From an uncultured Bacteroidota bacterium (GTDB taxonomy: Bacteria > Bacteroidota > Rhodothermia > Balneolales > Balneolaceae): 64,000 nucleotides of DNA. The stretch spans positions 110,584 to 174,583 of the forward strand of contig CAJXOH010000001.1 in NCBI GenBank assembly GCA_913057895.1, written 5' to 3'. Below are positions 27,917 to 38,066 of this stretch, piece by piece; position 1 is the stretch's first letter; every line of letters starts with the position of its first letter. The notes beneath the pieces are model-generated. The model saw only the letters and a list, made by a program, of their open reading frames with translations, did no database searches and was not told the origin of the DNA. Position numbers and translations under genes: made by a program.

Positions 27917-28687
27917 ATGCAACACGCTCAGATTCTTCCCTTGCTCCTTTTCCTATCGTTTATAATACTCTCATGTGAGCAGGCCGTAAGTGATCAACCA
28001 TCACAACAACTTACGTTCGAATCTGTAACATTTTTGCCTTCAAATGTGGAATACACCTCCGATGTTATACAGGATACAACACTGAATGTGTCATTTCAGG
28101 GGGAATTAAATCAAAAAACGACAGGTACACAAGGGGTCGCGTTTGTAACAAAAGGGTCAGCATCACCCCTATTTCTTGATGTTGAACTACAAGAGAATGG
28201 GACCTTTGATGCAGCTGGTCAATTAACCTTAAATACGGGTGAATCCACCACAATTCGTGCACGTATTGAATTTGTTGATCCTAATGGTCAACAAGTTAGC
28301 TATGAAACCTCCATTCCTATTGTGGGTGTTGCCGATGAAGCGCCTGTGATTGAGTCAATTACCCATGCAGATTCTGTGAGGATTCCCTCTTCAGGGTCCA
28401 CATCAATAGTCTTTGTTGCAGAGGTATCCCACCCTATAAGCTTGCAGAATATCGCTTCCGTGACGATGGAATTGATTGATGCTAGCACAAATGAGTCCAG
28501 AGGTGTATTTACGTTGGGAGATCAAGGCCAAGATGGGGATCAGCAAGCCAATGATGGTGAATATTTTGTAGGGTTAAGTATCAATGAAGACAATCAACCT
28601 GCGAGCTACCTATTGAGATGGAATGCAACGTCCGTGACAGGTTTATCGGCACCAGAAAAAACGACCACCCTAGAGATCTTCAGGTAA
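27917..28687 (+). CDS. lipoprotein, function unknown (first gene of the 27917-38066 operon)
   Basis: 256 aa with lipobox FIILSC. It appears beta-rich/Ig-like and has an acidic DQGQDGDQQANDGEYF segment. Its stop overlaps the next ATG (TAATG). Confidence 0.6.
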   Translation: MQHAQILPLLLFLSFIILSCEQAVSDQPSQQLTFESVTFLPSNVEYTSDVIQDTTLNVSFQGELNQKTTGTQGVAFVTKGSASPLFLDVELQENGTFDAAGQLTLNTGESTTIRARIEFVDPNGQQVSYETSIPIVGVADEAPVIESITHADSVRIPSSGSTSIVFVAEVSHPISLQNIASVTMELIDASTNESRGVFTLGDQGQDGDQQANDGEYFVGLSINEDNQPASYLLRWNATSVTGLSAPEKTTTLEIFR

Positions 28688-30315
28688 TGACAATGATGAA
28701 ACCTGGAATGTTTTCATATAGTTGTGGGTGGGGCATCATTTTGTTGGTAGTTGCGGGAGTGTTTATGCCAAGCTACAGTCAATCTTCAACCTGGATAGGT
28801 CCATTGTTTGATCGTGAAAATTCGTTTCGTCAAAACAGTATTTCAGTTATCGGTGCCAATGATCAAGGTGTATGGATTGGACCTGGATTAGAGCAGTCCA
28901 TCCCTCCTTTTGCGTCTTGGAATGCTCCAAATGGTCTTGATTCTGTGAATCTAGGAACAGCTTCTTTGTATTCCATTGATGTACAAAGCCCAATACTACT
29001 TGCAGGTTTAGGCGCAACAACGACAATTGATGATGAATCTGTGCCTCGAGCTGCAGGCTATGGACTATCACAAGACAAGGGGGAATCTTGGACATATCAA
29101 CCCTTTGATTTAGATCCAGAACCCGATCCTGTACGTTGCCCTGACCCATCACTATTGGACGAAGCGTGTGATTTATCGTTTAGTTATGGGGCAAATGAAT
29201 ATCGAAGAGTGCGCATTACCGTCCCTGAACAATCACCACCCTACGATCTTTTTTTCCATGACAATACTTTGTATGCAGCACACTGGGCTTCAGGTGTGAA
29301 AGTATCCAGGGATCTAGCCGAAACATGGCAGTTTGTTCCTTTACCCCCACAACCTGCATCCCAAATGACCCCCACGTCGTCAACTTCATGGACAAGTACG
29401 ACCTCAAGCGGATCCATTGATCGATACGATCCTCGATCTGATAATAATTTGCTTGGTTTCTCTGTACATGTGGACGATAAAGATGTCGTTTATGTTGGCA
29501 CAGCAGGTGGACTCAATGTGTCGGAGGATCTTCACGAATTGGGCCCCACAGAAGCGTCTTGGGTGCATCAACAAGCCAATGGATCAGCTAGAGGCTTACT
29601 TGGTAACTGGATCATTAGAATTCGTCAAGACGCAGAAACAGGAGACTTGTGGATGACTAATTGGCCTACTTCTGCGTCTGAGCGATACGGATTGGTTCAA
29701 ACTAATGATGGTGGTGCGACCTTTAATCAACACCTAATTGGACAAAAAGTGAATGATATAGGATTTATGGGCTCAACCATCCTTGCTGTTGGAGATCAGT
29801 TACATCGTTCTGTAGATGGAGGCAAGTCTTGGAGAAGTCAAACCCCTCTATCAGTGGTTGGAAATCAACTTCCATTGTCCACGGAGTTTTTTTCCATTGA
29901 TACCTATCAGAATATCGTCCTTGTAGGAAGCTCACAAGGATTACTTGTTTCTGAAGATGAGGGTCTAACATGGGAGCTTTTACGAGTCGATTATCCATTG
30001 ACAGGACAACACAATACACGACCAAGTGATTCAGTAGATGGGTACGTCTATCCAAATCCATTTTCACCCACAACCCATGAATTTGCTCGTATTCGTTTCA
30101 ATGTTGATGAACCCATGACCGTTTCCGTCTCCATATTTGATGGTCAGATGCGAAGAATCTATCAATCCAGTGAATCCGTGGGATCAAATGGTATCTATGA
30201 AGTGCTTTGGAATGGGAGAACCACCAATGGTCTTGAAGTACATAATGGTGTCTATTTTGTACAAGTAGAAGGTAAGAGCATGCTTTTTCGTGGTAAAATT
30301 TTAGTGGTGCAGTAA
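28687..30315 (+). CDS. BNR/Asp-box beta-propeller protein with T9SS C-terminal sorting domain
   Basis: The start is reassigned to ATG 28687 (MTMMKPG...), which gives a normal signal peptide (ILLVVAGVFMPSYSQ). Asp-box motifs: SQDKGESW, TNDGGATF, SVDGGKSW, SEDEGLTW. The C-terminus is YVYPNPFSP...VSVSIFDGQMRRIY...YEVLWNGRTTNGLEVHNGVYFVQVEG...KILVVQ, a Por_Secre_tail / FlgD-Ig-like type A CTD. Confidence 0.8.
   Translation: MTMMKPGMFSYSCGWGIILLVVAGVFMPSYSQSSTWIGPLFDRENSFRQNSISVIGANDQGVWIGPGLEQSIPPFASWNAPNGLDSVNLGTASLYSIDVQSPILLAGLGATTTIDDESVPRAAGYGLSQDKGESWTYQPFDLDPEPDPVRCPDPSLLDEACDLSFSYGANEYRRVRITVPEQSPPYDLFFHDNTLYAAHWASGVKVSRDLAETWQFVPLPPQPASQMTPTSSTSWTSTTSSGSIDRYDPRSDNNLLGFSVHVDDKDVVYVGTAGGLNVSEDLHELGPTEASWVHQQANGSARGLLGNWIIRIRQDAETGDLWMTNWPTSASERYGLVQTNDGGATFNQHLIGQKVNDIGFMGSTILAVGDQLHRSVDGGKSWRSQTPLSVVGNQLPLSTEFFSIDTYQNIVLVGSSQGLLVSEDEGLTWELLRVDYPLTGQHNTRPSDSVDGYVYPNPFSPTTHEFARIRFNVDEPMTVSVSIFDGQMRRIYQSSESVGSNGIYEVLWNGRTTNGLEVHNGVYFVQVEGKSMLFRGKILVVQ
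30058..30312 (+). other. T9SS type-A C-terminal sorting domain (within the cargo CDS)
   Basis: The last 85 aa or so carry the NPF...(V/I)xIFD...G...W(N/D)G...G...GVYF...K(I/V)xxx pattern. Confidence 0.75.
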
Positions 30316-36987: not shown

Positions 36988-36989
36988 AT

Positions 36990-38066
36990 GTGAACCATAA
37001 AATTGCTATGAATACGTCTAGAAAATCTTTTATCAAAACACTTGGGACATTTGGATTACTACCCTGGGCTATAACTCAAAGTGCTGCTGCTCAGCAACTC
37101 ACCACTCCTTCACGATTAAACGGCTCGAATCCTAAGACATTAGCAGTGGGTTCACGAAATGCACTGCGAGGAGTCGAATTGGCGGTTTCTATGATGGCTG
37201 ATGGGCAAGATCCTCTTGATGCTGCTGTTGAAGGGGTAAAGATCCAAGAATTGGACCCAGATGACATGAGTGTAGGATATGGTGGGCTTCCAAATGAACA
37301 TGGAGTTGTTCAGCTTGATGCTTCATGTATGCACGGACCTACCAAAAGAGCGGGTGCTGTAGGGTGTCTGGAAGGAATTAAAACTCCATCTGAAGTCGCA
37401 AAGGCGGTTCTTGAGCTCACAGACCACATCATGCTCGTAGGTGATGATGCAAAGACATTTGCCCTACAATTAGGGTTCCAAGAAGAGAATCTACTTACCG
37501 AACGTGCAAGAGAGGCATGGCTCCGCTGGAAACGTAATCTAAACCCTTCTGATAATTGGTTGAATGAAGATGGATCTAATCCAACTTCAACAGGTACTGT
37601 CCATATATCAGCGTTGACACAACAAGGTGATGTTGGATCGATTACGACGACATCTGGTTTGTCTTATAAGATTCCAGGACGAGTGGGTGATTCGCCAATT
37701 ATAGGTGCGGGTCAATATTGTGATCAACGGGTTGGCTCTGCGGGATCAACTGGTCGCGGTGAAGCTAATATTATGGCTTGCGGTAGTTTCTATGTGGTCG
37801 AAAGAATGCGTTCTGGAGAAAGTCCCGAACAAGCGTGCTTGTCGGCGCTTCAGCGAGTCGTCGAAATGACAGAATCTCGACTTCTAGATGACGATGGAAG
37901 ACCTAGATTTAATCTCAACTATTATGCACTCAATGTTAACGGTGAATTTGGTGGCGCTACCATGCGTAAACCTTCTCAACGATCATTGGATAATGGAGGC
38001 GGTACGTTTGCCGTTGCTGAGCCTGGAAACGCACGATTAGAGCCAATGGCTTGGCTTTTTGATTAA
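36990..38066 (+). CDS. Ntn-hydrolase of the glycosylasparaginase / isoaspartyl peptidase (Asparaginase_2) family, with a Tat-like signal
   Basis: 358 aa. It has an N-terminal SRKSFIKTLGTFGLLPWA...AAAQ signal, a candidate autoprocessing nucleophile (TGTVHISAL), and GDSPIIGAGQYCD and STGRGE motifs. The start is GTG 36990 or ATG 37008. Confidence 0.8.
   Translation: MNHKIAMNTSRKSFIKTLGTFGLLPWAITQSAAAQQLTTPSRLNGSNPKTLAVGSRNALRGVELAVSMMADGQDPLDAAVEGVKIQELDPDDMSVGYGGLPNEHGVVQLDASCMHGPTKRAGAVGCLEGIKTPSEVAKAVLELTDHIMLVGDDAKTFALQLGFQEENLLTERAREAWLRWKRNLNPSDNWLNEDGSNPTSTGTVHISALTQQGDVGSITTTSGLSYKIPGRVGDSPIIGAGQYCDQRVGSAGSTGRGEANIMACGSFYVVERMRSGESPEQACLSALQRVVEMTESRLLDDDGRPRFNLNYYALNVNGEFGGATMRKPSQRSLDNGGGTFAVAEPGNARLEPMAWLFD

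Follow-up and report, generated by a model that had tools for sequence, protein, structure and literature searches.

A candidate operon coupling T9SS-type surface proteins with a cytoplasmic amino-sugar pathway in a Balneolaceae bacterium

Porphyromonas gingivalis has a type IX secretion system (T9SS) whose attachment complex consists of PorU-PorV and PorZ-PorQ, and in Porphyromonas the attachment genes are scattered and not known to be linked to sugar genes. To our knowledge, the tethering of T9SS cargo is understood in chemical detail for only three oral Bacteroidia, and we know of no anchor glycan or PorZ equivalent in the rest of the Fibrobacterota-Chlorobiota-Bacteroidota (FCB) group (Balneolales, Ignavibacteria, Calditrichota, Cloacimonadota and others). 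Here, we analysed a block of nine open reading frames (ORFs), g1-g9, which fills positions 27917-38066 on the + strand of a 64-kb window (the whole stretch of DNA under analysis, 64,000 nucleotides from an uncultured Balneolaceae bacterium). The best explanation of this block is a single operon that couples a T9SS-dependent surface module (g1-g4) with a cytoplasmic pathway for a lipid-linked amino-sugar oligosaccharide (g5-g8). A full-text literature search found no paper describing the cluster, and the arrangement thus appears undescribed, as the first-pass annotation of the sequence had supposed. All of the parts belong to known families, and the logic proposed below is that of the known attachment system.

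PorZ reportedly binds the anchor lipopolysaccharide (LPS) and passes it on to the sortase (PMC8545088). The P. gingivalis cargo anchor is a single 'A-linking saccharide' (A-LS) unit; in the vim operon, VimE, of carbohydrate esterase family 4 (CE4), and VimF, a glycosyltransferase of family GT4, make and transfer the linking sugar, the terminal sugar being produced by VimE and VimA (PMC7468200; PMC13086638). The T. forsythia homologue of VimF, BFO_2565, and a 2-epimerase predicted in that species, BFO_2566, bear consecutive locus tags (PMC7468200; PMC13086638). P. intermedia has a different linking sugar and does without VimA and VimE; two unrelated linking sugars are therefore already in use, and the authors expect further pathways (PMC11969387).

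The ORF list and direct reading of the junctions revealed a closely packed block. Seven of the eight junctions between g1 and g9 are overlaps of 1 or 4 nt. The g1/g2 and g2/g3 junctions are TAATG, with the ATG at 28687 and 30315, respectively, and ATGA overlaps are present at 31391 (g3/g4), 32359 (g4/g5), 34829 (g6/g7) and 35896 (g7/g8). The overlapping or nearly abutting arrangement reported in the first-pass annotation thus stands, except that its 13-nt overlap at 33372 (g5/g6) depends on the TTG that opens the longest ORF; the ATG at 33381 gives another ATGA overlap and agrees with the N-termini of the orthologues (MNT...). Between g8 and g9 there is a gap of 2 nt if the GTG at 36990 is used, or of 20 nt with the ATG at 37008. 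Ten genes had been claimed, but we found nine ORFs, and the annotation's own list holds nine products. Close gene packing is widespread in this genome, and the neighbouring trp operon is packed likewise; the packing is compatible with a single transcription unit and is unremarkable by itself. Inside the block, a consensus scan gave 17 sigma-70-like matches, against 29.5 in shuffled sequence, a scan that is uninformative as the consensus may not apply to the host phylum, and 6 terminator-like matches, against 10.8. The base composition is flat over the whole block, no tRNA genes are present in the window, and Rfam gave no match in the window or in the upstream spacer. Given this flat composition and the lack of tRNA genes, the block looks like an ordinary chromosomal operon, with no sign of an island.

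N-terminal export signals are present in g1-g4 and absent from g5-g8, while g9 has one resembling a twin-arginine translocation (Tat) signal. The first gene, g1 (27917-28687), encodes a 256-aa lipoprotein with Ig-like domains, which is probably surface-exposed. Its N-terminal hydrophobic segment is followed by a lipobox (...IILSC), in which the Cys is invariant across 18 orthologues and is followed by D or E at +2, in agreement with the original call of a lipoprotein. The C-terminal part carries the conserved motif DDGxxGDxxANDxxY, and a match to 'choice-of-anchor X' is weak (17 bits, with a cut-off of 25). The g1 family is small: in a set of 1.84 billion proteins it makes up 138 clusters at 50% identity. 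It was found in 38 related loci, and in each of them it lies directly upstream of g2.

The g2 gene (28687-30315) encodes an exported protein of 542 aa, in which a hydrophobic segment (residues 7-31) followed by SYSQS marks a signal peptide, and a single BNR/Ycf48-like beta-propeller precedes a T9SS type-A C-terminal domain (CTD; approximately residues 452-542, window positions 30040-30312). Residues 454-539 pass the TIGR04183 Por_Secre_tail model at 25.1 bits, a small margin over the cut-off of 23, and the propeller and type-A CTD named in the first-pass annotation are thereby upheld. The CTD also matches the CTD of a true PorU from a related locus (L007) in a tblastn search, and the CTD part of the PorU model scores 27 bits; of the partial matches to the g2 CTD, the PorU CTD is the closest. 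Further family matches fall short: the F510_1955 BNR hydrolase family reaches 48 bits against a cut-off of 175, FlgD_ig in Pfam reaches 26.6 against 27, and BNR and Sortilin likewise lie just under their cut-offs. The public names of the orthologues are generic ('FlgD immunoglobulin-like domain containing protein', 'WD40/YVTN/BNR-like repeat-containing protein' and 'hypothetical protein'). The AlphaFold2 (AF2) model of g2, with a mean confidence (pLDDT) of 87.6, consists of one propeller and a C-terminal beta-sandwich. In a Foldseek search against the PDB, the top match was PorZ (5m11; E 4e-14), with template-modelling (TM) scores of only 0.29 and 0.22, because PorZ has two propellers. The Ycf48 and GH74 propellers, with TMt values up to 0.65, are a better fit to the propeller domain of g2.

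The next two genes encode outer-membrane barrels with signal peptides. The 359-aa product of g3 (30315-31394) is a divergent member of the PorV/PorQ (FadL-like) family, matching the PorV_fam model at E 1.5e-10 (41.2 bits, cut-off 90) and the PorQ model at 5e-6 (25.8 bits, cut-off 220); all 18 of its orthologues match both PorV_fam (best 1.6e-29) and PorQ (best 3e-16). A profile of g3 searched against the PDB matches TodX at 1e-4 and PorV (6h3i_F) at 6e-4. The 323-aa product of g4 (31391-32362) belongs to the same family and is nearer to PorQ than to PorV, with 84.3 bits for PorV_fam (NF033709; cut-off 90), 81.8 for PorQ (NF033711; cut-off 220) and 25 for PorV. All 19 g4 orthologues match PorV_fam (best 1e-48) and PorQ (best 1e-31), and the g4 profile matches the PorV structure 6h3i_F at E 7e-15. 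Among the 37 g3 and g4 orthologues taken together, all match the family models, and the PorQ scores exceed the PorV scores. The assignment of two PorV/PorQ-like barrels therefore rests on significant matches, although both window proteins remain under the family cut-off of 90. As a separate observation, 15 of 18 g3 orthologues match, below threshold, the NCBI model 'PorVQ2, putative type IX sorting system protein PorV2', and the PorU genes of two related loci (L007 and L013) partly match a 'PorU2' model (NCBIfam NF052325/NF052324 for the PorVQ2/PorU2 observation); a second sorting pair, PorU2/PorV2, thus exists in the NCBIfam model set.

The sugar module begins with g5 (32359-33384), encoding a 341-aa cytoplasmic protein that resembles a glycosyltransferase (GT) of the GT-B type and has a His-rich N-terminal domain and no hydrophobic segment. 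The window protein matches Glyco_trans_1_4 and Glycos_transf_1 weakly, the GT1 match being significant though under its cut-off (19.2 bits against 27), and lacks an EX7E motif; of its orthologues, 12 of 18 match Glyco_transf_4 (best 4e-10) and Glycos_transf_1 (best 1e-9). Residues H73, H75, W76, E78, W107, T108, H110, N111, P114 and H115 are invariant.

The product of g6 (33381-34832; about 483 aa) is cytoplasmic, with neither signal peptide nor transmembrane segment, and combines an N-terminal alpha/beta domain of about 190 aa with a CE4 metal-dependent de-N-acetylase domain. PF01522 (Polysacc_deac_1) is matched at 32.2 bits, over the cut-off of 23.1, and the metal-binding and catalytic residues D210, D212, H259, H263 and H344 are invariant across 27 sequences. 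A Foldseek search with the AF2 model (pLDDT 85.5) confirmed the CE4 fold, with 3rxz (2e-9), PelA (9cgy; 505 columns), ArnD (8t0j) and WbmS (3hft) as neighbours. A CE4-like deacetylase with an additional N-terminal domain, as first annotated, is thus what we find. The N-terminal domain is strongly divergent in the window's own clade (alignment A1, columns 60-200).

The two remaining sugar genes are clear-cut. The 356-aa product of g7 (34829-35899) is a cytoplasmic GT4 glycosyltransferase that exceeds the cut-offs for Glyco_trans_1_4 (53.9 bits), Glycos_transf_1 (47.7) and Glyco_transf_4 (37.9) and carries the EX7E motif FETPGIAAME. The g8 gene (35896-36987) encodes a non-hydrolysing UDP-N-acetylglucosamine (UDP-GlcNAc) 2-epimerase of the WecB family, with 282.3 bits for TIGR00236 (cut-off 210) and 277 for PF02350; as this family also takes in WbpI-type epimerases, the substrate may be UDP-GlcNAc or of the WbpI type, the sequence being compatible with either. 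The calls of GT4, WecB and, for the last gene, exported glycosylasparaginase all lie over curated cut-offs, and throughout the block the profile searches showed the family calls of the first-pass annotation to be essentially right.

To follow the linkage of the two modules we used g6, a rare family with 29 relatives in the protein database. A pattern scan of one genome per species found g6 relatives in 298 species, and 80 of those loci were retrieved; together with 8 from earlier look-ups they form a survey set of 88 loci, in all of which ORFs were called and searched with iterated hidden Markov models built from the window proteins. Upstream counts rest on the 65 loci with at least 8 kb of upstream sequence. 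The nearest relatives of the window are metagenome-assembled genomes (MAGs) labelled Bacteroidetes UBA1860 and Balneolaceae Uz-K11-11. Many others are Balneolaceae, among them cultured Gracilimonas strains and Balneola MAGs, and further MAG labels are Ignavibacteriota, Calditrichota, Cloacimonadota, Chlorobiota, Fibrobacterota, Chitinivibrionales, Neomarinimicrobiota and Chitinophagales. The g6-g7 core also occurs in MAGs with odd labels, L016 and L029 (Armatimonadota) and L031 (Alphaproteobacteria).

In 82 of the 88 loci g7 directly follows g6, and the sugar core, GT-Wzx-g6-g7, is spread over the FCB phyla. In 37 of the 65 informative loci, g1-g2-g3-g4 stand directly before the GT gene, followed by Wzx-g6-g7 and sometimes WecB. 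The place of WecB varies: in the 26 surveyed loci whose cluster includes it, the gene stands behind g7 or else in the g5-Wzx interval. Most of these full clusters (33/37) have trpE/trpS upstream and share a vertical synteny within one order, the Balneolales, and they are therefore weak evidence for linkage. The full cluster recurs, however, with other flanks in four loci (L039, L070, L071 and L084), and in part in L043. In L039, L070, L071 and L043 the GC content is 32-33% and WecB has been relocated between g5 and Wzx, while in L084 the GC content is 49% and g5 is replaced by a different GT. Since the linkage is kept through such rearrangement, selection appears to act on the clustering. Conservation of the link between T9SS-type and sugar genes, on which the first-pass annotation had staked its proposal, is therefore observed, including in different contexts and gene orders.

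Two loci with only the sugar core, L007 and L013, place it 4-5 kb upstream of a true PorU gene; these sortase genes reach 764 and 798 bits, the cut-off being 420, and in L007 PorV comes next. A further 'PorU' match in L085 was rejected, as it is a leucine-rich repeat cargo protein matching through its CTD only, and the adjoining 'g2-like' ORF is likewise a CTD-only match.

The survey also changed the picture of the flippase. A Wzx gene is present in 66 of the 88 loci, mostly between the first GT gene and g6; in the comparison with L006, L015, L083 and others, the gene measures about 1.4 kb and separates the orthologue of g5 from that of g6. It is of the Wzx/Polysacc_synt type (PF01943, PF13440), not PelG. 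The operon lacks it in the window, L002, L010 and L011, and also in L012, and tblastn found no Wzx anywhere in the 64-kb window. The statement in the first-pass annotation that there is no Wzx is thus correct for the window but not a trait of the system: the absence is a derived loss in the window's clade and one other, not a design feature. The g5/g6 junction with its ATGA overlap at 33381 marks the site of a clean deletion in the window. As the Wzx-less form is intact among relatives with g6 identities of 54-60%, it is under selection, and a flippase must act in trans.

Family resemblance and gene neighbourhood together suggest a role in attachment or conjugation. We tentatively propose, at a little under an even chance, that the glycan is a T9SS linking or anchor saccharide which g1-g4 bind or present for sortase-type attachment of cargo. 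In this scheme, WecB (g8) would supply a 2-epimerised UDP-N-acetylhexosamine, and the GT-B transferases g5 and g7 would add sugars to a lipid-linked acceptor at the cytoplasmic face. The CE4 enzyme g6 may then strip an N-acetyl group on the cytoplasmic side, leaving a free amine; a precedent is ArnD, which has the CE4 fold and whose substrate, an undecaprenyl-linked sugar, is processed at the cytoplasmic face before it is flipped. Wzx would flip the product in almost all relatives, the function being presumably supplied in trans in the window's clade. At the surface, the barrels g3 and g4 may hold the CTD protein g2, as PorQ holds PorZ; in PorU-PorV, too, it is the barrel that holds the CTD. 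In that case the operon would correspond to PorZ/PorQ together with the Vim-type linking-sugar genes, made of different proteins. The absence of an initiating transferase, polymerase and ligase argues for a short accessory unit that uses general machinery, and the anchor-glycan proposal is favoured by the order g6-g7-g8, which mirrors vimE-vimF-epimerase. Since there is no VimA, the acceptor may be the sugar amine that is exposed.

A bolder version, which we regard as unlikely when taken whole, holds that the eight-gene unit is the missing cargo-anchoring pathway of T9SS bacteria outside the Bacteroidia. WecB, the two GT-B transferases and the CE4 enzyme would build a lipid-linked oligosaccharide with a de-N-acetylated terminal amino sugar, which Wzx would flip. 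The free sugar amine, with no VimA-added amino-acid spacer, would serve as the nucleophile for PorU in joining cargo C-termini, and delivery of the glycan would fall to g2, seated by its CTD on the two PorQ-like barrels along with g1 and standing in functionally for PorZ with a single propeller. If true, this would be the first case of attachment-complex and linking-sugar genes forming one genetic unit.

Several results weigh against the anchor-saccharide proposal. The g2 protein is not a PorZ orthologue, as it reaches 15.3 bits with NF052228 (cut-off 260) through a CTD-only match; beta-propellers match widely, and g2 has a single propeller where PorZ has two. Both barrels are under the PorQ equivalog cut-off, and under the family cut-off g4 falls just, and g3 well, below. 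VimE is not among the 29 g6 relatives, and the likeness of g6 and g7 to VimE and VimF consists of family membership (CE4, GT4) and adjacency only. The 64-kb window contains no PorU, PorV, initiating transferase, ligase or Wzx, and none of the T9SS genes SprA/Sov and PorK/L/M/N; for PorU and the initiating transferase this had been noted at the outset. Given that the window's clade has lost Wzx, the pathway may not work in the same way here. In 28 of the 65 loci the sugar core occurs with no g1-g4 nearby, and in only 2 of these is PorU nearby. Finally, the bulk of the conserved linkage comes from one order, and vertical inheritance alone explains much of it. What the first-pass annotation observed is partly confirmed, and its interpretation is partly supported, the conjugation function in it being conjectural.

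Among the alternatives, a private cargo system is possible but doubtful. Here, g2 would be a T9SS surface enzyme or adhesin with its own barrels and lipoprotein, comparable to type-B cargo with PorP/SprF shuttles, and the glycan would decorate g1 or g2, as in protein glycosylation via a Wzx-flipped lipid-linked oligosaccharide, or be the ligand or substrate of g2. The operon has just one CTD protein, and g2 shows a partial match to a family of BNR glycosylhydrolases (48 bits) and matches to GH74 folds, although the first of these, F510_1955, is far under its cut-off of 175. The cluster of the relatives, with Wzx and without Wzy or ligase, also fits the protein O-glycosylation loci of Bacteroidota. 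However, the distribution of the sugar core is much wider than that of g1-g4, and the role of the core is therefore independent of g2. In Flavobacterium, cargo genes are often linked to those of cognate shuttle barrels (PMC12618676); the known cognate pairs nevertheless combine type-B CTDs with PorP/SprF, whereas the present locus combines a type-A CTD with PorQ-like barrels.

It is rather more improbable that the sugar genes make an ordinary envelope glycan (an O-antigen, LPS core or other surface polysaccharide) and merely lie beside unrelated outer-membrane genes, the shared transcription reflecting general envelope biogenesis. Each of the five sugar-gene families is a standard component of O-antigen and enterobacterial common antigen (ECA)-type clusters, the core stands alone in the 28 loci mentioned above, and most full clusters occupy the same chromosomal position, consistent with vertical synteny. 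This explanation is at odds with the linkage kept in L039, L070, L071, L084 and L043 despite other flanks, GC content and internal order, with the 4-nt overlap at g4/g5, the very junction that joins the modules in the window, and with the true PorU near the core in L007 and L013. The g6 family is, moreover, centred on the FCB phyla, the group that bears T9SS.

A Pel-like exopolysaccharide machine, in which the GT4 enzymes polymerise a partly de-N-acetylated N-acetylhexosamine (HexNAc) polymer that leaves through a MOP-family transporter and a barrel/lipoprotein exit, is very improbable and was rejected. The Pel system has the GT4 enzyme PelF, the PST-like PelG, the deacetylase PelA, the outer-membrane barrel PelB and the lipoprotein PelC, a superficial parallel to which the place of PelA among the top structural matches of g6 (505 alignment columns) adds. 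However, PelA is periplasmic whereas g6 lacks a signal peptide, for g7 there is no match specific to PelF among 19 NCBIfam matches, the barrels are FadL/PorV-like rather than PelB-like, and the transporter of the relatives, absent from the window, is not PelG. Least credible of all is a decaying system, in which the window copy is drifting towards pseudogenisation after the loss of Wzx and the arrangement is functionless: the Wzx gene present in 66 other loci is indeed missing here and in L002, L010, L011 and L012, and g1-g8 evolve faster than the flanking housekeeping genes (54-73% against 75-89% identity), but all nine ORFs are intact, g6 retains its catalytic residues and g7 its EX7E motif, and the Wzx-less layout has kept its overlapping junctions even though the g6 proteins of the relatives share just 54-60% identity, which points to long-term purifying selection.

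Returning to the block itself, the last gene, g9 (36990-38066), encodes an exported glycosylasparaginase of the N-terminal nucleophile (Ntn) hydrolase type, with 192.8 bits for Asparaginase_2 (cut-off 27), a Tat-like N-terminus (SRKSFIK...AAAQ) and a phmmer match in the PDB to glycosylasparaginase 1p4k (E 5e-57). It had been counted as part of the module, but it occurs only in the window's clade (L001, L002, L010 and L011) and is outside the conserved unit; it is probably an unrelated or late-added periplasmic enzyme at the operon end. Its identity to the L002 and L010 proteins is 87-89%, compared with 54-73% for g1-g8. A recent transfer of g9 was considered on this account and rejected, because the flanking housekeeping genes are equally conserved (75-89%; asnS and the M16 peptidase 86-89%); by the same comparison g1-g8 are fast-evolving and g9 is not unusual. 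The glycosylasparaginase of Elizabethkingia (Flavobacterium) meningoseptica aligns with g9 over residues 65-325 at E 5e-57, and g9 shares the export signal of that periplasmic enzyme. It differs in its position as the last gene of this operon, which it has only in the window's clade; any part that it may play in the system is speculative.

Where the 3' end of g9 runs into a convergent gene, the consensus scan identified a terminator-like hairpin (38040-38052, GAGCCAATGGCTT) and a T-run (GGCTTTTTGA), together spanning 38040-38062 on the + strand and constituting a consensus match only. The convergent ORF (38063-39682, - strand, 539 aa) overlaps the g9 stop by 4 nt at its 3' end, has no Pfam or NCBIfam match and is kept only in the window's clade (L001, L002 and L010). 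It forms the 3' boundary of the block and is followed by speE, holA, asnS, the M16 peptidase gene and pnp.

At the 5' boundary, a 206-bp spacer separates g1 from a divergent trpE-trpS-trpGDCFBA operon. A classical trp attenuator lies upstream of trpE (27723-27820, - strand), comprising a 13-codon leader peptide with tandem Trp codons (27820-27779, MQTYSTHNNAWWR) and a G+C-rich hairpin (27751-27723) with a T-run just ahead of the trpE start; it matches no Rfam family. Leader peptides with WW or WWW also precede trpE in L002, L010, L011, L083 and L063. The trpS gene (25176-26162, - strand) is inside the trp operon, between trpE and trpG, as in L002 and L006. Elsewhere in the window, an HPr kinase/phosphorylase gene (Hpr_kinase_N, Hpr_kinase_C; 16154-17206, + strand) adjoins genes for a tyrosine recombinase (14830-15786) and a GT2 enzyme (13578-14801).

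The operon is a concrete and compact candidate in which PorQ/PorZ-like genes are joined to a glycan pathway of five enzymes, an arrangement that dozens of species retain. Cultured strains carry the cluster too, namely Gracilimonas tropica DSM 19535 (L083), G. halophila KCTC 52042 (L048) and G. amylolytica LA399 (L055), which makes direct testing possible. Should the anchor idea prove wrong, the conserved pairing of a Wzx-type glycan pathway with barrels of the PorQ family would still indicate a novel function for such barrels.

Three described systems resemble the locus in part. It shares WecB, GT4, Wzx (in the relatives) and a cytoplasmic sugar-modifying enzyme with Wzx/Wzy clusters of the O-antigen and ECA type, and the O-antigen and lipid A modification enzymes WbmS and ArnD are structural neighbours of g6. 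It differs from those clusters in having no initiating phosphoglycosyl transferase, Wzy, Wzz or ligase, the window also lacking Wzx, and in the translational coupling of its sugar genes to T9SS-type outer-membrane genes.

With the Wbp/Vim pathway, the locus has in common a CE4 and a GT4 enzyme in one operon, and in the Wbp/Vim system it is a sugar amine that receives the cargo. The A-LS is a single unit linked to undecaprenyl diphosphate and served by general polymerase and ligase functions, which fits a cluster with GTs, with a flippase in the relatives, and with no Wzy or WaaL. VimA and WbpA/B/D/E are, however, absent from the operon and the window, and g6 has its extra N-terminal domain; in view of these differences, the product is likely a different sugar, such as a hexosamine with a free amine. 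With regard to the P. gingivalis attachment complex, the locus differs in its two PorQ-like barrels, its extra lipoprotein, its lack of a sortase in the operon and its host, a Balneolales-type lineage rather than one of the Bacteroidia, while sharing a surface beta-propeller protein with a type-A CTD and 14-strand barrels of the PorQ/PorV family, of which g4 scores best against PorQ models.

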